Shown: one piece after another, positions 3 through 17,577 of the stretch
Numbering within the stretch: position 1 is the first letter of the stretch
How the letters are laid out: each line of letters starts with the position of its first letter
From: Anaerolineales bacterium
GTDB lineage: Bacteria; Chloroflexota; Anaerolineae; Anaerolineales; E44-bin32
Length of the DNA stretch: 31,007 nucleotides
Reading direction: 5' to 3'
Assembly (NCBI GenBank): GCA_030668545.1
Contig: DAOUTT010000001.1
Location: forward strand, 1-31,007
The notes under the pieces: generated by a model
Seen by the model: the letters and a program-made list of their open reading frames with translations, nothing else
Told to the model about the DNA's origin: nothing
The model's database searches: none
Made by a program: the position numbers and the translations under genes

Positions 3-728
3 CTGCATAATCTCCGTCCTTCGCTTAAAGAATGTGAGCAGGAGATACACATTGAAAGCCCTTCCGTCAATCAAATCGCAGATATTTATGCACAACTGAG
101 CACTCAGACGAATTATATTTTATCCCTCCATTCATCCTCAGGATTAACCGATTCATTTAGAAACGCGCAAAAAGCCAGTCAACAGTTCCTGGGGAGGATG
201 GACATCCATGTGGTCGACTCCCAGACCACATCTATCGGGTTGGGATTGGTGGTCCAAACCTGTGTACAAGGAATGCAGCGGGGCGAATCGCTGGATAAAT
301 TGGTAAAAACCGTTCGCGGAATGATCACCCGCCTCTACACAGTCATGTTTCTTGATGATCTTTCTTATCTGGCACGAAAACAAATCGTAAGTCAGTCTCA
401 GGCAATTCTGGGAAATATGTTGGGGGTTATCCCCTTCCTGACTATCGAAAATGGTGACCTTCAACCCATGGAAAAGGTCCGATCTAGACCACGGGCGCTT
501 GAAAAGTTGATCGAATTCGTTTGTGAATTTTCTGGAGTAGATCACCTGGGTATCCTCCATGGATATGGAAAGCCAACGCAAGACGCACTTTATATCGCTG
601 AACGACTGCGTTCTTTATACCCGAGCTCGCCGATTACACAGGTATGTTACGGTCCTACGCTCGCACCGTTCATCGGCTTCAACGGTCTCGGGGCAATCGT
701 GCTCGAATCTAAAGAAGAATCCATATGA
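3..728 (+). CDS. DegV/FakB family protein, divergent paralog, 5'-truncated by the window edge
   Basis: The frame of the 198..728 ORF has no stop back to base 3 (...PSVNQIADIYAQLSTQTNYILSLHSSSGLTDSFRNAQKASQQFLGRMDIHVVDSQTTSIGLGL...). It carries DegV-type segments (VVDS..SIGLG; P.LTIENG.L.P.EKVRS). Stop overlaps the next ATG (ATGA). Confidence 0.85.
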   Translation: MHNLRPSLKECEQEIHIESPSVNQIADIYAQLSTQTNYILSLHSSSGLTDSFRNAQKASQQFLGRMDIHVVDSQTTSIGLGLVVQTCVQGMQRGESLDKLVKTVRGMITRLYTVMFLDDLSYLARKQIVSQSQAILGNMLGVIPFLTIENGDLQPMEKVRSRPRALEKLIEFVCEFSGVDHLGILHGYGKPTQDALYIAERLRSLYPSSPITQVCYGPTLAPFIGFNGLGAIVLESKEESI

Positions 729-1573
729 CCACCGAAAACAGTCCCTTTGCCATCGTAACGGACAGTACAGCTGACATCCCTATTGATACGGCAGAATCCC
801 TGAACATCTCCGTGATTCCAGCGGTGTTGACCTTGGACGGCGAAACGTATTTAGATGGTCTTGATATATCAAGAGCTGAGTTCTACCAGAGAATGCCAGA
901 CCTGCGGACACCTCCCACAACGGCTGTGCCATCCGTACTCGTCTTCGAAGAGACCTACCAACGCCTGTTTGAAAGCGGTGTCGAGCGCATCCTTTCTATC
1001 CACTTATCTTCCTATCTCAGCGGCATGGTCAATACCGCTAAGCAGGCAGCACACAACTTTGACGACCGCGTGAAAGTATTTGACAGCAGCCAGCTCTCCC
1101 TGGGTGTTGGCTTCCAAGCCATCGAGGCTGCCCAATCGGTCATGAAAGGATTGGTTTTCGACCAAGTTGTGAGTACGGCCAAACGATTTCGAGAGAGAGC
1201 GTATGTCGTTGCGCTGATCGATCGACTCGAATATATGCGCCGAAGCGGACGAGTTACCTGGCTTCGTGCCAATATCGGTGATTTTCTTCAAATCAAGCAA
1301 CTAGTGGAAGTAAAAGATGGTCTCGTAAATGCGCTTACACGAACTCGTACCTACACGAAGGCTTTCGAGCAATTAATCTCGATAGCCTCTACCTGGAAAA
1401 ATATTGAACGTCTCGCCGTGCTCCATTCCGGAGCGCCTGAAAGAGCTGAGGAGCTCACCGAGCAGGTGGTCGGCATGTGCCCTAACCCTTTGATGATCGT
1501 CGATATAACCACGACCATCGGTGTCCACGTTGGTCCAGGATGCGTTGGGCTCGCTGTTATAACACATGATTAA
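725..1573 (+). CDS. DegV/FakB fatty-acid-binding protein
   Basis: IVTDSTADIP N-terminus, TTAVPS, HLSSYLSG, YMRRSGRV and IGVHVGPG motifs typical of DegV. Confidence 0.93.
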   Translation: MTTENSPFAIVTDSTADIPIDTAESLNISVIPAVLTLDGETYLDGLDISRAEFYQRMPDLRTPPTTAVPSVLVFEETYQRLFESGVERILSIHLSSYLSGMVNTAKQAAHNFDDRVKVFDSSQLSLGVGFQAIEAAQSVMKGLVFDQVVSTAKRFRERAYVVALIDRLEYMRRSGRVTWLRANIGDFLQIKQLVEVKDGLVNALTRTRTYTKAFEQLISIASTWKNIERLAVLHSGAPERAEELTEQVVGMCPNPLMIVDITTTIGVHVGPGCVGLAVITHD

Positions 1574-1612
1574 CTCTGGCACTTTTACACCTTCCCACGT
1601 ATATTTAATATT

Positions 1613-4231
1613 ATGAACCCAGCCCTAGACAAACTCTCAAAGTTTCTTCGACTTGAAGCCGAGCGCGGCTATGATAATCGAGCGGTAGTAAGCGGTCTTC
1701 AGCAGATGCTACAACCCTGGGCGGAAGAAGCGAAAGCGTCAAACTTGGCGGATTCGTCCATCGAACTGGTCGTCTCCCGTCTAAGTGACTACGGCCGGCT
1801 CTCCCCAAACTCCCGCTATGAATCGCTCCAGGGTCTGTGGAACCGGCTTCGCAAGGTTCATCCTGAGCTTGCTGACGACCTTCTGCTTAAACCACCCACC
1901 GGGGACTCTCCCCCTTCTCAAGAGGCTGCGGTTATCGAAGCAGACATCGGGGACTCCCCCCCTTCTAAAGAGGCCGCGGTTATCGAAGCAGACATCGGGG
2001 ACTCCCCCCCTGCTATAGAGGCCGCGGTTATTGACGCAGATACCCGGGAACCCATTAAAACCCAGGATGACCTCCCCTCAACTCCATTACAGGAAAGCGC
2101 TGAGGAGAAAGCTGCTCCACCCGCAGCGGACCTGGAAAAGAAAGATTCCACCCCACCCTCACCTCCTGTCGCGCTCACCGCGCCCTTAACCACCGTACAA
2201 GGGATCGGGCCTAAGTCAGCGAAGACGCTTTCAAAGCTGGGCCTTGAGAATCTAGGCGACCTCCTCTGGCATCTTCCCCGGCGTTACGATGATTACTCCC
2301 AGCTCGAAACGATCAACCGTCTCTGGTATGGCCAGGATGTTACGGTCATCGGAACGATCGAGAAAATCGAGATGCGTGCAGTTCGTGGCGGTCGCATGAA
2401 GCTCACCGAAGCCGTGGTGAGCGATGGAACCGGATCCCTGCGGGTCACCTGGTTTAATCAGCCGTGGATTGCGAATAAATTAAAACCCGGCCGCGGTATT
2501 GTGTTATCCGGGAAAGTCGATCAGTACCTCGGTCGACTCACGATGAACAGTCCAGAGTGGGAGCCGCTCGAACGGCATCAACTTCATACGAATCGAATCG
2601 TGCCGGTTTACCCTCTGACAGCTGGCGTATCTGGAAAGTGGCTGCGGCGTGTAATCCACTCGGTCGTTCAGCGCTTGGCACCTCGTGTCCCGGACCCAAT
2701 CCCAGCCGAGATTCGCCAATCTGCAGATCTCGTTCCCTTAAGCGTCGCCCTGCAGCAAATCCATTTCCCTGACGACCAGGATCAACTTAATAAGGCACAG
2801 CACCGGCTGGCCTTTGGCGAGATGTTCATGCTCCAGCTGGGCGTATTGCGGCAAAAACAGGATTGGGAGCAGCTCGTTTCCGAACCCCTTCAGGTCGAAG
2901 ATCAATGGCTCGACCACTTCACATCTAACCTTCCATACACACTCACTAATGCCCAGAAAGGGGCGCTGGACGACATCCGAAAGGATATGGCCTCTTCGAA
3001 ACCAATGAATCGCTTGCTCCAGGGAGATGTTGGCTCTGGGAAAACTGTGGTTGCCGCGGCTGCCATTGGCATTACCGCTTCCAACAAGGCGCAATCCGCT
3101 TTTATGGCACCCACGAGCATCCTTGCCGACCAACACTTTCATACCCTGCGCGAACTGCTTCCCGTTTCAGCACAAATTCCTGAAGAATCCATCCGGCTGC
3201 TTATCGGTGCCACTCCCGAAGCAGAGAAAAACGAGATTCGCCAAGGGTTAGAAGAGGGCGTAATCCAAGTCATCATTGGAACCCACGCGCTGATCGAAGG
3301 TCCGGTAAACTTCAAACAACTTGGTCTGGTGATCATCGACGAGCAGCATCGCTTCGGTGTCGAGCAGCGGGCAGCCCTACGCGACAAAGGACAGAACCCG
3401 AATCTATTGGTTATGACCGCGACACCGATTCCGCGATCCCTCGCGCTGACAGTCTTCGGCGATCTGGATCTAACCCTTCTGGATGAAATGCCTCCCGGCC
3501 GCCAACCAGTGGATACCCGCGTATTATTACCGCGTGAGCGTTCACGCGCACATGTGTTCGTTGACAGCCAAATAGAAAAAGGAAAACAGGCTTTCATCAT
3601 CTATCCACTCGTCGAGGGCTCGGAGAAGGTCCAGACGAAGGCTGCAGTCGATGAACATCAGATATTACAAGAGAATGTCTTCCCTTCGCACAAGGTTGGT
3701 TTGCTTCACGGACGTATGCGCCAGGAAGAAAAAGAGCAGGTCATGAATGAATTTCGGAAAGGCGAGAATGATGTCCTGGTGTCCACTTCTGTCGTTGAGG
3801 TGGGCATGGATATCCCCAATGCGACAGTGATGCTTATCGAAGGGGCAAATCATTTTGGACTAGCGCAGCTTCACCAATTCAGAGGCCGCGTAGGCCGGGG
3901 GGATTCTCAGTCCTATTGTCTTCTAATTCCTGACCGCGACGATGATGTTGAGAATGCCCGCCTGACCGCCATGCAAGCGACCAATGACGGCTTCGAACTC
4001 GCCGATTTGGATCTCGAACAACGCGGTCCAGGCGATTTCCTTGGCACTCGCCAATCGGGTTTTGCACAGCTCCGCGCAGCTCAACTCACGGATATCCGCC
4101 TGATTGAGAAAGCACGTCGAGAGGCAATCCGCCTTTTCGAAGAGGATCCAGAACTTACTAAACCCGAGCATGAGGCGCTTGCACTGGAGCTGGCACGCTT
4201 CTGGTCTATCGAGAAGGGAGAGATCAGCTGA
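1613..4231 (+). CDS. recG: ATP-dependent DNA helicase RecG with N-terminal helical extension and low-complexity linker
   Basis: Wedge domain (HLPRRYDD, VTWFNQPW), LQGDVGSGKT Walker A, DEQHRFGV, MTATPIPRSL, QFRGRVGRG and TRG motif (RGPGDFLGTRQSG). Confidence 0.97.
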   Translation: MNPALDKLSKFLRLEAERGYDNRAVVSGLQQMLQPWAEEAKASNLADSSIELVVSRLSDYGRLSPNSRYESLQGLWNRLRKVHPELADDLLLKPPTGDSPPSQEAAVIEADIGDSPPSKEAAVIEADIGDSPPAIEAAVIDADTREPIKTQDDLPSTPLQESAEEKAAPPAADLEKKDSTPPSPPVALTAPLTTVQGIGPKSAKTLSKLGLENLGDLLWHLPRRYDDYSQLETINRLWYGQDVTVIGTIEKIEMRAVRGGRMKLTEAVVSDGTGSLRVTWFNQPWIANKLKPGRGIVLSGKVDQYLGRLTMNSPEWEPLERHQLHTNRIVPVYPLTAGVSGKWLRRVIHSVVQRLAPRVPDPIPAEIRQSADLVPLSVALQQIHFPDDQDQLNKAQHRLAFGEMFMLQLGVLRQKQDWEQLVSEPLQVEDQWLDHFTSNLPYTLTNAQKGALDDIRKDMASSKPMNRLLQGDVGSGKTVVAAAAIGITASNKAQSAFMAPTSILADQHFHTLRELLPVSAQIPEESIRLLIGATPEAEKNEIRQGLEEGVIQVIIGTHALIEGPVNFKQLGLVIIDEQHRFGVEQRAALRDKGQNPNLLVMTATPIPRSLALTVFGDLDLTLLDEMPPGRQPVDTRVLLPRERSRAHVFVDSQIEKGKQAFIIYPLVEGSEKVQTKAAVDEHQILQENVFPSHKVGLLHGRMRQEEKEQVMNEFRKGENDVLVSTSVVEVGMDIPNATVMLIEGANHFGLAQLHQFRGRVGRGDSQSYCLLIPDRDDDVENARLTAMQATNDGFELADLDLEQRGPGDFLGTRQSGFAQLRAAQLTDIRLIEKARREAIRLFEEDPELTKPEHEALALELARFWSIEKGEIS
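1901..2044 (+). repeat. In-frame tandem repeat, 3 x 48 bp (16 aa) in the RecG linker
   Basis: Units start at 1901, 1949 and 1997 and encode GDSPPSQEAAVIEADI / GDSPPSKEAAVIEADI / GDSPPAIEAAVIDADT. Confidence 0.95.
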
Positions 4232-9377: not shown

Positions 9378-10178
9378 TTAGGCGTCCTCGTCCTTCTCGG
9401 ATTCAGCTTCATCGTTCGTTTCGTCTTTTTCCTCGGACTCAGGTTCCGCTTCGACTTCAGGCTCAGCTTCAGGTTCCGCTTCGGCTTCAGGCTCAGCTTC
9501 AGGTTCCGCTTCGGCTTCAGGCTCAGCTTCAGGTTCCGCTTCGGCTTCAGGCTCAGCTTCAGGTTCCGTTTCGGCTTCAGATTCAGCAGCTTCTTCGGAC
9601 TCTTTGGCTTTTTCTTCGCCATCGGTAGCTTCAGCCTCGGTCTCGTCTACAACCTCGGGAGCTTCCTTTTCCTCGGTCGGAGTTTCTTCAGGCTCCGCCT
9701 CAGCCTCGGTCTCCTCTGCTGCATCGGGCTTTTCCTCTTCCTCAGCTGGAGCTTCTTCAACCTCAGGCGTTTCTTCCACAGCTTCTTTCGCCTCGTCTTT
9801 CTTGCGCGCCTTAGCTTTCTTCTTACGCTTCCCGACAAGGTCATCACGGCGTGTCCGCGGATCGATCTCCGGGAGCGCCTTTTCAGCTTCCTCTAACAGC
9901 TTCTCGAGTGGTTCTCCTTGCTTAAAGCGTTCCCAACGCTCCCAGGTTCCCAGAGCGTTAAGTGCTTGACGGACGGCATCGCTTGGCTGTGCTCCATGCT
10001 GAAGCCAGTGGAACAAACGCGCTTCATCCACCACTACGGTGGATGGTTCCGTGCGAGGATTATAGTTGCCGAGGATCTCCAAGAAACGCCCATCTCGTGG
10101 GCTTTCTTTGTCCGCAGCGACGATTCGGTAGCTCGGCTGGTTACGAGCACCCACTCGGCGTAATCGAATTCGAACCAT
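9378..10178 (-). CDS. rpsP: 30S ribosomal protein S16 with a very long acidic C-terminal tail
   Basis: MVRIRLRRVG.RNQPSYRIVAAD..SPRDGRFLEILGNYNP core, then about 150 aa rich in E/A/P. Confidence 0.96.
   Translation of the reverse strand: MVRIRLRRVGARNQPSYRIVAADKESPRDGRFLEILGNYNPRTEPSTVVVDEARLFHWLQHGAQPSDAVRQALNALGTWERWERFKQGEPLEKLLEEAEKALPEIDPRTRRDDLVGKRKKKAKARKKDEAKEAVEETPEVEEAPAEEEEKPDAAEETEAEAEPEETPTEEKEAPEVVDETEAEATDGEEKAKESEEAAESEAETEPEAEPEAEAEPEAEPEAEAEPEAEPEAEAEPEAEPEVEAEPESEEKDETNDEAESEKDEDA
9439..9586 (-). repeat. 30-bp in-frame tandem repeat (about 5 copies) in the S16 tail
   Basis: On the + strand, TCAGGTTCCGCTTCGGCTTCAGGCTCAGCT recurs at 9439, 9469, 9499, 9529 and (degenerate) 9559. 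It encodes (AEPEAEAEPE)n. Confidence 0.95.
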
Positions 10179-11701: not shown

Positions 11702-11730
11702 ATTGTAGCCTGCCCGATGGTCTTGGTCAA
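11702..11730 (-). promoter_or_regulatory. Sigma70-type promoter for the ffh-rpsP-khpA-rimM run
   Basis: TTGACC (11730-11725), 17-nt spacer, TACAAT (11707-11702). Confidence 0.7.
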
Positions 11731-14402
11731 GGGATACCTTCGCTTCGCATGTGATCGAGGATATTTCGACCAATACGCTCCGCAATAATCGTATTCTGAC
11801 CCTCGATGACAACGACCACTACGTAACTGTTTTCGTGGTTGAACAGCCCGCCCTGATACCAGCCAAGGCTCTCGCCAGCTTCACCCGTCAGGGCTTCTGA
11901 ACGTTGGCCAAAGGGTTGCCCTTGTGCACCACCAAGCATCTCGATAACCTGGTTTCGGACGCTTGGATCTAAAACCTGACGATCTGCACCCAAAGGTAGG
12001 ATGTCAACCCAGTCCCCTTCCAGAGGTCGGTAAGCGTCCACGACCCGGAGAGCTGGCATACCCGGGTCTGAAATCAAACCTGCAAACGCCCGGGCGAGCT
12101 GCAGCGGGCTTATCGTCAGATTCCCTTGACCTACCGCTGCCAGCCCCAACGTGACTTCACTGGAGAGGTCATTTGGATCCGATGGTTCACCGGTTGGCAG
12201 GCGAATTTCCGGGCGCTCATGGAAACCAAATGCCTCGAGCAAGTTATTAAAATCATCAGCGCCTAATTCCAAGCCGAGTTTGACGAATGGCGCAGGACAT
12301 CCATTCTGGAGGGCCTTGATGTAGTCTGCATCGCTATCAGGGAGAAGCGTTAACAAGCATGCAAGTGATTGACCGTTCACTTCTACGGGTGTCTCAAAGT
12401 TTGGAGCCAAATCACCCGGTTCAGCGATACCCGTCTGCATGCTCCATGCAAGAATGTAGGGGCTTAGAACCATTCCGGGTTGATATCTTCCCTGAGTGAC
12501 TCGGTTCAATAATGGAGATGAAGGATCTGTCACTATGTCCTGCCACTCTTGGTCGAATCGATTTGGATCGTACGATGGCGATGATGCCATGGCCAGAATA
12601 TCCCCGGTTTGTGCATCCAGCAGGACAATTCCGCCCTGGTAGCCAGTGAGTTGATCCACGACGGCTTCCTGTAATTGGCTGTCCAGTGTCAAGCGGAGAT
12701 CGCTGCCGGGTGGAGGATGTCCGCTAGTAAGCTGTGACCACCCTATCGCAATCGGATTATCTCCCTCACTCCCCCGTAGAAGCCCATCCATGACGCTTTC
12801 TAAGCCGGATAAACCATAGGTAAAGGAGTCATATCCAATAACCGTCGCACTTTGAGGATGTGGATAAAATCGTTGATATGAGCCGAGGCTGCCCGTTGAT
12901 TCAGCGAGCAGTTCTCCGCTCTCATCCATTATCGACCCTCGTTTCGTATATAACTCTTCCACCGCTCTGCGCGGGTTATCGGTCCTGCTTACAAGGATGG
13001 GGGCTCGATAAACTGTCCACCAACCTAAAGTGACTGCCAGCGCTCCCCATGCAACGAGACTCCCATAATACAGCGCAGTAAGTGGGAGTGTGAAGATTTC
13101 ATTCCTCTCGGTTTTCCCTGAGAGTAGAAGAAGAATGCCCAGAAGGAGGAAGCTCGTAACAAGCGATGATCCCCCATAGGACACGAACGGTAAAGTCACC
13201 CCAACCAGCGGAAGCAGGCGGATATTCCCGCCGATGATCAACACTGCTTGCAGCCCGAGCGAGATACTGATGCCTGCAGAGAGCAACGCTCCAAATGGAT
13301 CCCGTGATCGAAAAGCGACGCGCAATCCCCTACTAACAAGCACGGCAAATAATGCGATGACAGCCAAGCCACCAAGCAGGCCAAATTCTTCTGTAATCGC
13401 GGTGAAGATGAAATCAGTATGAACAGCGGGAACAAATCCAGGTGACCCCAAACCAAAACCGCTCCCAATTACACCGCCGGAGGCTAATGCGATCAACGAC
13501 TGCACCACTTGGTACGACCCTCCAATCGGATCCGGCCATGGGTTTATCCATGCCGTGATCCGCTGACCAACGACATCAAAGAGGAAGTACCCCAATGCGC
13601 CAGCAAGTATTCCAAAAATCGAGGCAAGGATAATGATCCACCATCGTCCGGTTGCCAAATAAAGTAGGAGAGCAAGTAGCGCCAGGAAGAGCATCCCCAT
13701 CCCTAGATCCCGCTGGACGAGCAGGAGAACCACCGAGAGCGACCAGATGACAATCAAGGGAAGCAGCGTGGAAAACGACGGGAGTCCCTCATCTCGATGG
13801 AATGTGAAACGCAGCTTGTCACTCAGAAAGGATGCGAGAAAGGCAACCAAAAGCAGCCGAAGAGGTTCTGATGGCTGGAGATAAACCCCGCAACATCCGA
13901 GCCAGAGTCTGGGTTCGCCTCCAGTGGGATGCGTGCCGAAAACCAGTGTTAAGACCATCAACACCAGGCCTACGCTCATCCACACATACCTGTAGCGCCG
14001 CAGCCATGATAGATGCCTATCCCCGTGGAGAACTGCATAGAGGACGGTGATACTAACGATGAACCAACCCGTCTGCCGAAGACCGAAGCTCGGAAATAAC
14101 CGCCAAATGGCGAGCAAGCCCCAGCCAGTGAGCAGAAAAGCCGTTGGCAGTAATATGGGATCGCGATCAGGATTCGTGCGCTGGAGGGCCCGGCGCGTGA
14201 GCCAAAAACCAAAAACCCAAACGGGAAGAACGAGAAAATGACCCCAGCGGTCTCCAAAAGCTACCCATTGATCTAGGCGGGCTGCAGTTGCGAAAGACAA
14301 TGCCAAGGCAGTGAAGAGCAAAAAGAGGAACGCGAGGCTTCCAAGGAATACCTCGCGCTCCTCACTTGTTCGTTCTTGATCAGCTAAGATATCGATCCAC
14401 AA
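11727..14402 (-). CDS. Fusion of a SEDS (RodA/FtsW) glycosyltransferase and a PbpA-like penicillin-binding domain with degenerate catalytic motifs
   Basis: N-half: DPILLP..LL.GWGL..IWRL, RLW, QPSE, QRDLG, HTDFIF, TLPFVSYGGSS. C-half after one more TM helix: NPR..RGSI.D..G..LA.S..Y.R.YP..GY...GLE..L.G pedestal and transpeptidase fold. A probable TTG start at 14402 has an AGAGGT SD; the ORF track start is 14462. Confidence 0.9.
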   Translation of the reverse strand: MWIDILADQERTSEEREVFLGSLAFLFLLFTALALSFATAARLDQWVAFGDRWGHFLVLPVWVFGFWLTRRALQRTNPDRDPILLPTAFLLTGWGLLAIWRLFPSFGLRQTGWFIVSITVLYAVLHGDRHLSWLRRYRYVWMSVGLVLMVLTLVFGTHPTGGEPRLWLGCCGVYLQPSEPLRLLLVAFLASFLSDKLRFTFHRDEGLPSFSTLLPLIVIWSLSVVLLLVQRDLGMGMLFLALLALLLYLATGRWWIIILASIFGILAGALGYFLFDVVGQRITAWINPWPDPIGGSYQVVQSLIALASGGVIGSGFGLGSPGFVPAVHTDFIFTAITEEFGLLGGLAVIALFAVLVSRGLRVAFRSRDPFGALLSAGISISLGLQAVLIIGGNIRLLPLVGVTLPFVSYGGSSLVTSFLLLGILLLLSGKTERNEIFTLPLTALYYGSLVAWGALAVTLGWWTVYRAPILVSRTDNPRRAVEELYTKRGSIMDESGELLAESTGSLGSYQRFYPHPQSATVIGYDSFTYGLSGLESVMDGLLRGSEGDNPIAIGWSQLTSGHPPPGSDLRLTLDSQLQEAVVDQLTGYQGGIVLLDAQTGDILAMASSPSYDPNRFDQEWQDIVTDPSSPLLNRVTQGRYQPGMVLSPYILAWSMQTGIAEPGDLAPNFETPVEVNGQSLACLLTLLPDSDADYIKALQNGCPAPFVKLGLELGADDFNNLLEAFGFHERPEIRLPTGEPSDPNDLSSEVTLGLAAVGQGNLTISPLQLARAFAGLISDPGMPALRVVDAYRPLEGDWVDILPLGADRQVLDPSVRNQVIEMLGGAQGQPFGQRSEALTGEAGESLGWYQGGLFNHENSYVVVVVIEGQNTIIAERIGRNILDHMRSEGIP

Positions 14403-15246
14403 GTAAAGAGTACCTCTTACGCACCGCTTCTGAAATGATGTCCGGGTTCGTGGCAATTGCATCTTCTAGCGCAGTGTGACATTCGCAGCTCACTTCTTCA
14501 GGGAGTTCTGCAACAAGATGCGCAATTACTTCCTGGGCGAGGTTGGTATTCTTCTTAACGGTTTGGAATACCATTTCCACCGTGACTGGCTCCTCGGCTT
14601 GATGCCAGACATCGTAATCTGTGACATGCGCCATTACGGCGTAGCACATCTCAGCTTCCCTGGCGAGGAATGCTTCAGGAGAAGTCGTCATCACAATAAT
14701 GGACATTCCCCAAGCACGATATATATTGGATTCAGCACGGGTGGAGAAACGCGGTCCTTCGATCGTGATGTAGCACCCTCCACGATGGACGCTCCCGCTT
14801 ACTTCCTCAGTGCTGGATGCAAGGGTCTCGGAGAGATCAGGACAAAATGGGTCAGCGACACTGATATGTGTCACTAAACCGCTCTCGAAGAACGAACGTG
14901 GCCTAGAAACTGTATGATCAAATAGCTGATCAGGGATTACAATCTCACCCGGCACATAATCCTCACGCAGCGATCCGCAGGCGCTGATCGAAAGAACGCG
15001 CTCCACGCCGAACATTTTCAGGGCATATATATTCGCACGGTAATTCACGGTAGTCGGGGGATAGATATGGCCTATCCCATGGCGGGCCAAGAAGACTACT
15101 TTTCGACCATTTAACTTGCCTATCGCAAGCGGCGAACTAGGTTCGCCAAAGGGTGTCGAGATCTGTTGCATCTCTACGTCAGTCAGATCTGGCATGTCAT
15201 ATGTGCCCGACCCACCAATCACACCGAGAACAGGTTGTTCATCCAT
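14380..15246 (-). CDS. mtnP: S-methyl-5'-thioadenosine phosphorylase (MTAP/PNP family)
   Basis: GVIGGSG, FLARHG.GH, NYRANIYALK, EGPRFSTRAES, MT..PEAFLARE and TDYD motifs. Confidence 0.92.
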   Translation of the reverse strand: MDEQPVLGVIGGSGTYDMPDLTDVEMQQISTPFGEPSSPLAIGKLNGRKVVFLARHGIGHIYPPTTVNYRANIYALKMFGVERVLSISACGSLREDYVPGEIVIPDQLFDHTVSRPRSFFESGLVTHISVADPFCPDLSETLASSTEEVSGSVHRGGCYITIEGPRFSTRAESNIYRAWGMSIIVMTTSPEAFLAREAEMCYAVMAHVTDYDVWHQAEEPVTVEMVFQTVKKNTNLAQEVIAHLVAELPEEVSCECHTALEDAIATNPDIISEAVRKRYSLLVDRYLS

Positions 15247-15393: not shown

Positions 15394-15834
15394 TTAATCC
15401 ATATCATCTTCAACAACGGGTGCTTCCATTAGGAATTCAACTCTACCAAAGGCAATCTGGTCGCCATATGTGAGGACCAACGGTCCTTCGAGCGCTATAC
15501 CGTTGACTGTCGTCCCATTCCGCGAACCTAAATCCTCTAACCACCATTGTCCCTCGTGAAAGGATAACCGCGCATGATGCGCGGATGCTGTTTCATCCTG
15601 AAGCACTAATGAATTATCGGCTGCTCGACCAATCCGATTATTTGCGATGAGAGAGTGTCTTACATCAACGTTCGAACCGTCAGCTAATACAAGAACCGCG
15701 GGAGGGTAGTGTATTTCAGAGACTCGATGGGATTGTATCTCCTTCCAAAGAAAGAGAAGGATCACGCCCAGAAAAGCGTAGAGGATCAGACCCAAGACAA
15801 CCCTGATCACAAGTAGTACTAACCCTGGAGTCAT
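15394..15834 (-). CDS. FhaB/FipA-like protein: N-terminal TM helix plus FHA domain
   Basis: Hydrophobic N-terminus (LLVIRVVLGLILYAFLGVILLFLW). FHA motifs IGR, SAHHA and DLGSRNGT. ATG overlaps the upstream stop. Confidence 0.9.
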   Translation of the reverse strand: MTPGLVLLVIRVVLGLILYAFLGVILLFLWKEIQSHRVSEIHYPPAVLVLADGSNVDVRHSLIANNRIGRAADNSLVLQDETASAHHARLSFHEGQWWLEDLGSRNGTTVNGIALEGPLVLTYGDQIAFGRVEFLMEAPVVEDDMD

Positions 15835-16652
15835 TCCTGCCGTTTTTTCTTCTTGGGGATCACTCGAGTTCGTTGGTCACCGGAAGGGCGCGGTGGAAAT
15901 GGAGGTGAATAAGCTGGCGTTTCACCGGGCGGTCCTCCAGGGTCCTCTCCGTATACCAGCCGGTTTCCCGCCAGGTTGATTACATCTCCCGACTGTAGGA
16001 CATGATGTTTAATTGCACGCCCGTTGATCACAGTGCCTGCGGAGGAACCTAGATCAAACGCTTCAAACCGCCCTTCTCTTGCTCGAATTTGAGAATGTGT
16101 TCTAGAGATTCGCGGGTCATCGATGATGAGTTGATTGTCTAGCCGGCGGCCGATATTGATAACAGGTCGATCCAGGGGGAAGTGGCGATCCCCATTGACA
16201 ATCAAGTATGCACCCTTGGGAAGCACACCCGGATTGGTCTTGGGTTCAGTATGCATAGCCTGTGTGAACTCAAGCGGGCTGGTGCTGTGCCAGGCGACAA
16301 CCCTCACCTCTTTCGGGCCTAAAGTAGGATCGACTGCGATTGTCACAATCGGTTCACGAAAGACCAGGTAATCACAATCGCGCGCAACTTGTAGAAGCCC
16401 TTGCGAGAAACCTTCCTGCAGGTGTGGCGCTTGATCTAGAATTGCCTGCGCATCATCAGGGTTTAGCGTGAGCGCGTATTGATCAGGGACGAAGGGTTTG
16501 CCATCCTCCGTCCTGCGAATACCCTCATCCATCGCCCGTGAGAGTTGGGCAGCGACCAGAGCAGGTGAAAACTGAACCCCGAGCAATTTGCTCAGGGCGC
16601 CCTCGACGAATCTCTCAATTTGTGACTCGATATGGTCGATTGGATTAGCCAC
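15831..16652 (-). CDS. FhaA-like protein (DUF3662-type N-domain plus FHA domain), paralog 1
   Basis: N-domain (IE..IERFVEG.L...F.P..VA..L.RAMD...VPDQY.L.LNP.D). FHA motifs IGRRLDN, ISRTH and DLGSSAGT. Confidence 0.88.
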   Translation of the reverse strand: MANPIDHIESQIERFVEGALSKLLGVQFSPALVAAQLSRAMDEGIRRTEDGKPFVPDQYALTLNPDDAQAILDQAPHLQEGFSQGLLQVARDCDYLVFREPIVTIAVDPTLGPKEVRVVAWHSTSPLEFTQAMHTEPKTNPGVLPKGAYLIVNGDRHFPLDRPVINIGRRLDNQLIIDDPRISRTHSQIRAREGRFEAFDLGSSAGTVINGRAIKHHVLQSGDVINLAGNRLVYGEDPGGPPGETPAYSPPFPPRPSGDQRTRVIPKKKKRQE

Positions 16653-16722
16653 GTTAGCTGAGTCTCTTAACTGGAAAATTTACCATTCTGCGTGCAATCA
16701 TAGCACAAATAATAGCTGCGAT

Positions 16723-17577
16723 TTATTTGTTCTTGTCAGGGGGGTCAGAATCAAGTTGTCTCAATTGTGTTGTGATCCTAAAATCCAAGGGGGTTATGCG
16801 ACCATCCGTAGGCTCTACCGCAGGCACCGGTTTGTATGGCGGAGTCACTTCCGGTGGACCACCGGTATCTTCTCCATAGATCAATTCGACTTTCGCAACA
16901 TTAATTACATCTCCTGGTTGGAGCGAATGGTCCTGGACCTTAATCCCATTAACATAGGTTCCGGCTGTAGAATTGAGGTCGTGGAGGATATATTTGCCGC
17001 GGCTGGCTAACAACCGTAAATGTTGCCTTGAAACTCGAGGATCATCGATTACCAGATCATTGTCCAACCGACGACCAATTTTGATCAACGCGGTTGATAG
17101 CGGGAAATGCCGTCTGCCTTCGACGACGAGAAAAGCGCCTGCTGGGGGTCTGTCGGTATCATACTCCTCGATCGGCGTGATCTCGCCTTGAATATCCAGT
17201 GGATTACTACTGTGCCAACCAATGACGCGAACCCCATCTTGAGGGAGTGTGGGGTCTGTTGAAAGCGTGAAATGGACTTCTCTTGCAAAGAGAAAATCTG
17301 CATCTTGCAGAGCTTGCCTAAAATCCCGGGATATTTCCATTTGCAGATCATCGGGCAATTGACCGATTTGTCTTAAGCCTTCCGGGTTAACGCTTAATGT
17401 GAATTGATCAGGGGCATATTCACGCCCATTAGAATCAACGCGCGCCGCCCCAATCGTCTCTTTTGCGAATAGGTGAGCAAACTCTTCCATAGGGAGATCT
17501 CTAATATCGAGATTCCCTAAGGATTTCTTAAGCGCTTTCTCTATCGCTTTTTGAATCTGAATTAATCGATCGTCCAT
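16723..17577 (-). CDS. FhaA-like protein (DUF3662-type N-domain plus FHA domain), paralog 2
   Basis: Colinear with paralog 1 (APDQFTLSVNP, DPTL...VRVIGWHS, GAFLVVEGRRHFPL, IGRRLDN, VSRQH, DLNSTAGT, YGEDTGGPP). Confidence 0.88.
   Translation of the reverse strand: MDDRLIQIQKAIEKALKKSLGNLDIRDLPMEEFAHLFAKETIGAARVDSNGREYAPDQFTLSVNPEGLRQIGQLPDDLQMEISRDFRQALQDADFLFAREVHFTLSTDPTLPQDGVRVIGWHSSNPLDIQGEITPIEEYDTDRPPAGAFLVVEGRRHFPLSTALIKIGRRLDNDLVIDDPRVSRQHLRLLASRGKYILHDLNSTAGTYVNGIKVQDHSLQPGDVINVAKVELIYGEDTGGPPEVTPPYKPVPAVEPTDGRITPLDFRITTQLRQLDSDPPDKNK

Follow-up and report, generated by a model that had tools for sequence, protein, structure and literature searches.

Why should a bacterium keep, joined to a polymerase of its cell wall, a partner enzyme from which every catalytic motif has gone? 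The question is raised by one gene in a 31,007-nucleotide stretch of an Anaerolineales genome (contig DAOUTT010000001.1, positions 1 to 31,007; this whole stretch is called the window below). The gene, at 11727–14402 on the minus strand, encodes a SEDS glycosyltransferase followed, in the same chain, by a penicillin-binding protein (PBP) of the PbpA type with all of its transpeptidase (TP) motifs replaced. Class B PBPs (bPBPs) have two jobs, the cross-linking of glycan strands and the allosteric activation of a SEDS polymerase. To our knowledge, these two jobs have been separable in model organisms only through engineered mutations. We propose that the fusion is probably an active SEDS polymerase in which the non-catalytic PbpA module serves as activator or scaffold, with cross-linking carried out in trans.

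Overall organization of the fusion protein

The open frame runs uninterrupted for 911 codons from an ATG at 14462 (11727–14462, minus strand). A form of 891 residues begins at a TTG at 14402, the start adopted in a preliminary description of the locus; relatives have the same length and the same gene calls. Since the relatives are uniformly 891 residues long and their genes are called from the equivalent position, 11727–14402 is the likely extent of the gene. Residue numbers refer to the 911-residue form (P0002) throughout, and all features of the fusion given below lie on the minus strand.

The SEDS (RodA/FtsW-type) glycosyltransferase domain occupies residues 96–450 (13113–14177) and matches the Pfam family FTSW_RODA_SPOVE (PF01098) over residues 126–449 (1.3e-73; 248.5 bits, with a cut-off of 26.4). 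It is followed by a short cytoplasmic linker and an eleventh transmembrane (TM) helix (residues 451–491, 12990–13112), the membrane anchor of a bPBP, which is predicted to pack on TM8–9 of the SEDS domain. The PbpA-type pedestal or head region (residues 492–605, 12648–12989) contains a PBP_dimer_2 match (PF21922, residues 508–588, 4e-11), and the TP-fold domain without catalytic motifs (residues 606–911, 11730–12647) is matched by Transpeptidase (PF00905) at residues 610–850 (4.2e-26), but only by profile positions 1–222 of 299. Glycosyltransferase, pedestal and transpeptidase domains are thus all found by Pfam in a single polypeptide. With an alignment of 62 rows as input, AF2 gave a model (mean pLDDT 82.5, pTM 0.73) with an extra long helix at 455–485 and confidently folded pedestal and TP domains, the pLDDT of the latter being mostly 85–95. 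Pfam and the model therefore agree with the preliminary description, in which one reading frame unites a SEDS domain, a further TM helix, a PbpA-like pedestal and a TP fold. In a Foldseek search, the pedestal and TP half resembled Mycobacterium tuberculosis PbpA (3un7, TMt 0.79), 4mnr (TMt 0.81) and the TP domains of Coriobacteriia fusions (about 0.8). The TM anchor, the pedestal and the penicilloyl-serine transferase fold of a PbpA-type bPBP are all present.

The SEDS half shows both marks of its family, a match to the whole-domain model and the catalytic-site residues. Trp187, Glu199, Asp252 and Asp350 align to Trp102, Glu114, Asp159 and Asp262 of E. coli RodA (8tj3_B) and are invariant or nearly invariant across the family. 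Asp350 (codon 13413–13415), within the HTD motif, is the equivalent of the catalytic Asp262 of E. coli RodA, which serves as the active-site reference (PMC10449877). The RLWLG and QPSE motifs are present together with HTD, and the earlier statement that the SEDS side is intact is upheld by this alignment of catalytic residues. The domain scores 244 and 215 bits with the NCBIfam ftsW and rodA equivalogs, respectively, and because both scores are under the equivalog cut-offs, it does not count as a canonical FtsW or RodA.

Loss of the catalytic motifs in the transpeptidase module

All three motifs that define a class B PBP, SxxK, SxN and K(T/S)G, are missing from the TP module. SxxK is replaced by MVLS (residues 664–667, 12462–12473), with methionine in place of the serine and serine in place of the lysine, and SxN by GCP (residues 721–723, 12294–12302), which contains Cys722. 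In the alignment with M. tuberculosis PbpA (3un7, phmmer 2.4e-28), PGSTFK stands opposite PGMVLS and SCN opposite GCP. The KTG equivalent was given in the preliminary description as LTG (11883–11891), and this strand region has no lysine; its register is known only to within about 5 residues, the equivalent being placed at 853–855 or 858–860 depending on the MAFFT alignment, and the Pfam match ends earlier. The only lysines within residues 606–911 are Lys716 and Lys728, with none in 729–911, and because neither of the two is conserved, the doubt about the register leaves the conclusion unchanged. The coordinates first reported for the three replacements proved exact.

Could the module still work as a transpeptidase, or as another hydrolase-type enzyme, through non-canonical residues? 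The overall fold is intact, and at the position of the SxxK serine 9 of the 74 dead-clade representatives described below have Ser and 20 have Thr. However, the fusion studied here has Met at this position, the motif lysine, SxN and KTG are gone in all dead members, and the Pfam model fails on the C-terminal third. At the SxN site, the dead clade has G/A-C-P or has lost the region. Across the TP columns 606–911 of the same 74 representatives, Lys is found in at most 14% of members at any column, no Lys or His is conserved, and a search for a new conserved Ser or His found none. A substitute catalytic Ser, Lys or His in the TP domain is thereby ruled out at the family level, where no conserved candidate column exists, and enzymatic activity of this kind is very unlikely. 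This bears also on the alternative Ser/Lys pair that the preliminary description had named as a finding that would overturn its view; no such pair is conserved in the TP sequence columns of the family. The TP module is best regarded, on its sequence, as a pseudo-enzyme and is expected to be negative for covalent β-lactam binding.

Some residues have outlasted the motifs. Cys702 (codon 12357–12359) pairs with Cys722, and, as first noted, this Cys pair flanking the SxN loop is kept: the two cysteines are invariant in close relatives and occur in 86% of dead-clade representatives, against 45–73% of live fusions. The other conserved leftovers of the dead TP domain are Arg654, Tyr660, Gly663, Gly778, Trp868 and Glu887, and Gln779, which completes a GQ motif, is invariant in close relatives.

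Distribution and origin of the dead module

Two questions follow. First, is the loss peculiar to this strain? Second, did it come before or after the fusion? Modules are called dead here when the three motifs are gone and live when they are kept. Among the 120 homologues listed (45–96% identity, from Anaerolineales and Chloroflexota metagenome-assembled genomes (MAGs)), all 120 are fused, about 890 residues long and without the SxxK lysine; YQPG is followed by a sequence other than SxxK, the SxN site reads G/A-C-P, KTG is absent, and RLWLG, QPSE and H(T/S)D are conserved. When 1.84 billion cluster representatives were searched exhaustively with HMMER, 2792 matched at E ≤ 1e-30, and analysis of the best 150 yielded 96 usable fused representatives (50% identity clusters), 74 dead and 22 live. 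The architecture and the dead motifs are identical in hundreds of independent assemblies, including the complete genome of the isolate Leptolinea sp. HRD-7 (L022).

A strain-specific pseudogene, a repaired frameshift or an assembly chimera is hardly conceivable under these circumstances. Besides the hundreds of intact relatives, the fusion and five relatives of 77–96% identity show zero indels and no stop codons in 891 codons, which together rule out a pseudogene or an assembly artefact. The earlier claim of an intact gene is thus borne out, the dead state being common to its relatives and the motif loss consistent among the Chloroflexota homologues surveyed.

For the origin of this state, SEDS and PbpA-like reading frames were taken from 80 named genome loci. 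All Anaerolineae-type modules sampled are dead (Anaerolineales, Anaerolineaceae, Leptolinea, Longilinea, Brevefilum, Caldilineaceae, Ardenticatenaceae and Promineifilaceae). Live motifs, mostly in two separate genes, are found in other Chloroflexota (including Limnocylindrales), Actinomycetota and Bacillota, and in Coriobacteriia they occur in fused form (L044, L045, L049 and L066). In a maximum-likelihood tree of 67 pedestal and TP modules, the 31 dead rows all lie on one side of a branch with 100% support, and the motif state requires one change. The TP motifs were lost a single time, between the Anaerolineae-type Chloroflexota and the rest. The preliminary description had spoken of three independent motif changes; the loss of the three motifs stands, but they are not changes within this strain, as all trace to one ancestral branch. 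The Coriobacteriia fusions fall on the live side of the tree and are therefore the product of an independent fusion event.

In four or five lineages the dead module is encoded as a separate gene, at five loci (L054, L055, L056, L059 and L060) from Ardenticatenaceae, Promineifilaceae and three other MAGs. The junctions are of the translationally coupled kind: at four of the loci its ATG overlaps or lies just past the stop codon of the SEDS gene, and at one it lies 71 nt downstream. Four of the five loci were included in the tree, where the split dead rows branch basally in the dead clade; a clade of 25 fused rows has 97% support. Split dead genes with proper junctions, together with the live fusions of Coriobacteriia, rule out fusion as the cause of inactivation. 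If the root is placed on the live side, inactivation would have preceded fusion. The architecture needs four changes on the free tree, but a tree constrained to unite the 27 fused dead rows is not significantly worse (p-AU 0.33), so that a single fusion event within the dead clade would be compatible with the tree. Of the permanently tethered pseudo-transpeptidase described earlier, the fusion is confirmed, whereas tethering does not account for the dead state, given the split dead modules of the basal lineages. Intact motifs or split genes in close relatives had been considered a sign of a pseudogene or an assembly error; intact motifs are found nowhere among the 120 homologues listed, and the split forms, confined to basal lineages, are dead as well.

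Three further observations concern individual loci of this clade. A sub-clade of dead fusions (L031, L032, L035, L038 and L040) has a deletion in the TP core, a further step in its erosion, which is also seen in L037 and L039, both too partial for the tree. At L030 (4990–8328), the gene for S-methyl-5′-thioadenosine (MTA) phosphorylase and the SEDS::dead-PbpA gene are read in a single frame of 1113 codons without a stop; they may form a triple fusion or may be just two in-frame genes. The contig JBLIMP010000114.1 (L041), titled Cellvibrionaceae and binned as a gammaproteobacterium, carries a typical Anaerolineae-type locus with MTA phosphorylase and a dead fusion that groups with Ardenticatenaceae in the tree; misbinning is a likelier cause than gene transfer.

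Predicted contact between the two halves

In the solved complexes 6PL5 and 8TJ3, the TM helix of the bPBP lies on TM8–9 of the SEDS protein and the base of the pedestal on its large extracellular loop, ECL4, which we take to be the activating contact. The fusion was split into two chains (residues 21–455 and 456–911) and docked in three runs with three controls. The ipSAE was 0.78 in the three runs and 0.00 for the best control, a score that, as a property of the model, indicates likeness to the solved SEDS–bPBP complexes and not binding or function. Of the solved complexes, 58 of 80 attained the mark used for ipSAE, and of the mismatched pairs 2 of 110; these counts hold only approximately here, where our own alignment was supplied. 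The predicted contacts join residues 456–505, 526 and 578–582 of the module to SEDS residues 357–416 (the TM8–9 region) and 312–343 (ECL4), and the TM-helix and juxtamembrane residues 456–491 form part of the interface in the complex model. Arg493, Asn496, Arg498, Arg508 and Gly509 are conserved and located at or beside the predicted ECL4 contact. Arg493, Asn496 and Arg498 are invariant in the dead clade, and Asn496 and Arg498 are conserved in live relatives too.

Candidate cross-linkers in the genome

If the fused module cannot cross-link, which enzymes could do so in its place? The genome, a MAG 2.29 Mb in size and 83% complete, contains an FtsW in the dcw cluster (murD-ftsW-murG), a RodA adjoining minCD and two MreB homologues. 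There are three other bPBPs, namely a PBP2-like one after mreD, an FtsI-like one and one of the MecA_N type, all with intact SxxK, SxN and KTG. Two class A PBPs (aPBPs) are present, one live and a second with a degenerate TP part, and at least six genes encode YkuD L,D-transpeptidases. The preliminary description had allowed for reliance on another cross-linker, and this list of bPBPs and L,D-transpeptidases makes it clear that others exist in the genome. The fusion is the third SEDS gene beside complete FtsW/FtsI and RodA/PBP2/MreB sets, and exactly three SEDS genes, with FtsI-like and PBP2-like partners, are found in each of five other Anaerolineae-type genomes. The genome of L026 (G002, CP070785.1) has several PBP genes, FtsI-like and aPBP, that appear fragmented, which suggests assembly frameshifts, and counts there are unreliable.

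The MecA_N-type bPBP, present in this genome and in four of the five other dead-clade genomes, was considered as a dedicated trans cross-linker. It also occurs in three of four Chloroflexota genomes with a live PbpA; being equally common where PbpA is alive, it does not discriminate and gains no specific support in this role.

A second degenerate PBP is encoded in the same genome. At L006 (G000:C51:3959-7360), the reading frame 316–3246 encodes a class A PBP-like protein (977-residue frame) with a good GT51 transglycosylase match (3e-33) and C-terminal Ig-like domains. Its TP match is weak (7e-6) and lacks SxxK and KTG, and a protein resembling it occurs in a further Anaerolineae genome (L128, 36% identity).

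Selection and the probable role of the module

The ratio of non-synonymous to synonymous substitution (dN/dS) was calculated by the Nei–Gojobori method for the same six sequences, the fusion and its five relatives. It is 0.06–0.13 (about 0.07) for the SEDS domain, 0.08–0.30 for the pedestal and 0.17–0.28 (about 0.2) for the TP part. The dN/dS check proposed for the TP domain thus came out as purifying selection. In actinobacterial control pairs with live PbpA modules, the dN/dS of the module is 0.09–0.39 and the ratio of its dN to that of the SEDS domain is 1.1–1.9; the latter ratio is 1.3–2.0 for three more distant dead pairs. It is at deep divergence that a relaxation can be seen: the mean pairwise identity of the TM helix and pedestal, relative to that of SEDS, is 0.80 in dead fusions and 0.82 in live ones, whereas the corresponding values for the TP core (664–911) are 0.52 and 0.94. 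With a mean pairwise identity of 0.24, the TP core is the least conserved part of the dead fusions. Relaxation is limited to the catalytic core, and the TM helix and pedestal are conserved as in active relatives.

How might such a protein work? We suggest that it descends from an actinobacterial-type rodA-pbpA pair located behind fhaA and fhaB, the PbpA partner of which would have lost its acyl-enzyme machinery (SxxK, SxN and KTG) in a single event, in an ancestor common to the whole lineage. The two genes would later have merged into one reading frame in most members, probably by loss of the stop codon at an overlapping junction of the ATGA type. In this proposal, the dead module has been retained for the docking of its TM helix and pedestal on TM8–9 and ECL4 of the SEDS domain, and docking through this activating bPBP-to-SEDS contact would make it a built-in, non-catalytic activator or scaffold. 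The fusion would be a functional third SEDS peptidoglycan polymerase of Anaerolineae-type Chloroflexota, and its glycan strands would be cross-linked in trans by the three live bPBPs, the aPBPs and several L,D-transpeptidases. Three elements of this proposal are inferred, namely that the fusion polymerises glycan, that the dead module activates it and that other enzymes of the cell do the cross-linking. A polymerase with a pseudo-transpeptidase as activator or scaffold is what the preliminary description had in mind, and its pseudo-enzyme, its pattern of selection, its SEDS residues, the conservation of TM helix and pedestal and their predicted docking have all been found.

Several observations weigh against this proposal. 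A specific trans cross-linker was sought among the synthases of the genome, and none was singled out. The docking score may echo the predictor's memory of the solved RodA–PBP2 and FtsW–FtsI complexes. The TP core is under purifying selection (about 0.2) and keeps YxPG, the Cys pair, GQ, Trp868 and Glu887 at the former cleft. Finally, about 70 residues of the TP core around the former SxN loop are deleted in forms of 808–841 residues, which argues in the opposite way to the conservation of the core.

A ligand-binding role is possible because a pure tether would not obviously require conserved residues in the cleft. The dead cleft would then have taken on a new task, to bind for example uncross-linked stem peptides, muropeptides or another protein, and would act as sensor or gate for the fused polymerase. 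The confident AF2 fold of the TP core and its low dN/dS would fit such a site, as would the conservation of the cleft-lining residues Tyr660, Gly663, Cys702–Cys722, Gly778, Trp868 and Glu887, and, in close relatives, of Gln779. However, the low identity of the core, both in itself and relative to SEDS, and the complete deletion of the SxN region in several lineages speak against it, and most of the kept residues are also conserved in live PBPs, where they may be purely structural. We regard this alternative as rather unlikely, and a non-catalytic activator or scaffold as the better account.

Genomic neighbourhood

The genes next to the fusion are listed here in order of transcription, all on the minus strand. 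Two FhaA-like genes (FhaA_N and FHA domains by Pfam) lie at 16723–17577 and 15831–16652, followed by a FhaB-like gene with an FHA domain at 15394–15834, for which the best NCBIfam match is FhaB/FipA at 82 bits, below its cut-off of 125 bits. Next comes the MTA phosphorylase gene at 14380–15246 (Pfam PNP_UDP_1; NCBIfam TIGR01694, 308 bits, above the cut-off), the end of which overlaps the start of the fusion by 23 nt. The order fhaA(-fhaA)-fhaB-MTA phosphorylase-fusion is kept in fused and split members of the dead clade alike. In live relatives, about 1 kb separates fhaA-fhaB from rodA-pbpA. MTA phosphorylase is found next to the fusion throughout the dead clade (loci L016–L060) and also at one live Chloroflexota locus (L068). 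The neighbour thus coupled to a wall polymerase is an enzyme of methionine salvage. The tandem FhaA-like pair (15831–17577) is kept in the closest relatives (L016–L019, L097 and L099), and most other loci examined show one FhaA-like match. Downstream of the fusion lies ffh. The 266-residue reading frame at 9378–10178 (minus strand) begins with a ribosomal protein S16 domain (residues 8–66), so that S16 seems to bear a C-terminal extension of about 200 residues; the gene found there in relatives encodes 247–280 residues (L097 and L098).

A further elaboration can be imagined, in which the dead PbpA would be a pseudo-enzyme receptor. Its preserved cleft (with YxPG, the disulfide-linked GCP loop, GQ, Trp868 and Glu887) would take up a partner cross-linker or uncross-linked stem peptide, and the module would gate the polymerase through the pedestal–ECL4 contact under FHA phospho-threonine control. 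If true, filamentous Anaerolineae would possess a third machinery for wall synthesis of their own, self-contained and gated by a signal. A phospho-acceptor Thr for the FHA proteins was sought in the cytoplasmic N-tail and the linker between SEDS and TM helix, and none is conserved there; the only conserved elements of these segments are an RRE motif before TM1 and Ser448. Nine Hanks kinases (Pkinase matches) are encoded in the genome, all on other contigs. We consider the receptor doubtful.

The same surroundings may lead one to ask whether the protein makes ordinary peptidoglycan at all. It could be a non-enzymatic relic with a regulatory or scaffolding task, or could make a non-standard product, such as glycan that stays uncross-linked and serves a special layer of the envelope in filamentous Anaerolineae; it is, after all, a third SEDS protein beyond two complete sets, and its neighbours are FHA signalling proteins and MTA phosphorylase rather than wall genes. 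Nevertheless, the known SEDS catalytic-site residues are invariant, the SEDS domain is the most constrained part of the protein (about 0.07), and its sequence offers no hint of a different substrate, which makes this alternative quite improbable beside a standard polymerase with a built-in activator.

Comparison with known systems

The activator or scaffold proposal, if correct, describes a natural separation of the two jobs of a bPBP, in which a whole class of bacteria has retained the partner long after loss of its chemistry. Selection focused on the TM/pedestal contact would be independent, natural support for the activation model, and the fusions would offer a system for SEDS activation without a transpeptidase background, including that of the cultured isolate Leptolinea sp. 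HRD-7. There is a consequence for annotation as well: these proteins are labelled FtsW/RodA or 'bifunctional', and their PBP half would be misjudged as a β-lactam target.

Natural SEDS–bPBP fusions and structures of live ones are already known; a naturally dead, lineage-wide version was not found described. Full-text searches on dead SEDS–bPBP fusions and on wall synthases of Chloroflexota gave no description of it and led only to the general fusion survey PMC12516126, the list of 117 fusions in PMC12516126 not having been checked for Anaerolineae. In its accessible part, PMC12516126 treats natural fusions as 'bifunctional class B synthases' and does not mention dead ones. The term implies two competent modules; the fusion studied here has lost the motifs of its TP module and is not bifunctional in this sense. 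SEDS polymerases require their bPBP (bioRxiv 10.1101/358663), and dead canonical bPBPs can support division if a second bPBP does the cross-linking (PMC12516126, summarising Sassine 2017 and Shrestha 2025). Bacillus subtilis PBP2b with PBP3 and Clostridioides difficile SpoVD with PBP3 are, according to the same article, cases in which TP activity is dispensable and another bPBP cross-links, and in this they resemble the fusion. They are naturally active, however, and their inactivation was engineered, while the loss in the fusion is natural, complete, ancient, fixed in the lineage and usually accompanied by fusion to SEDS.

By sequence, the pedestal and TP module match M. tuberculosis PbpA (3un7) best; this protein also ranks with the top fold matches, and shares the PBP_dimer_2-type pedestal and the Cys pair around the SxN loop. 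It differs in being live and β-lactam-binding (acyl-enzyme complexes 3upn, 3upo and 3upp), with the motifs that the fusion has lost. The M. tuberculosis operon has the order fhaA-fhaB-pstP-rodA-pbpA-pknA-pknB, with RodA as Rv0017c and PbpA as Rv0016c. Both loci have fhaA and fhaB upstream and the SEDS gene directly before the PbpA module, but the actinomycete relatives found mostly have two separate genes where the Anaerolineales fusion is one reading frame. MTA phosphorylase takes the position of pstP between fhaB and the SEDS gene; no PP2C phosphatase lies between these two, and no kinase is on the contig of the fusion.

The Coriobacteriia fusions (TP domains 4MNR, 4JBF, 4N1X and 4QJG) share the N-to-C order, the length of about 900 residues, the fold and the upstream fhaA and fhaB genes. 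Unlike the fusion studied here, they keep SxxK, SxN and KTG and were crystallised with β-lactams bound. The RodA–PBP2 complexes (8TJ3 of E. coli and 6PL5 of Thermus thermophilus) and FtsWI (8BH1 of Pseudomonas aeruginosa) have the same SEDS catalytic residues and the TM8–9/ECL4 interface that is predicted for the fusion. These complexes consist of two chains, with a live TP domain and a PBP_dimer-type pedestal, whereas the fusion is a single chain with a short PbpA-type pedestal and a dead TP domain.

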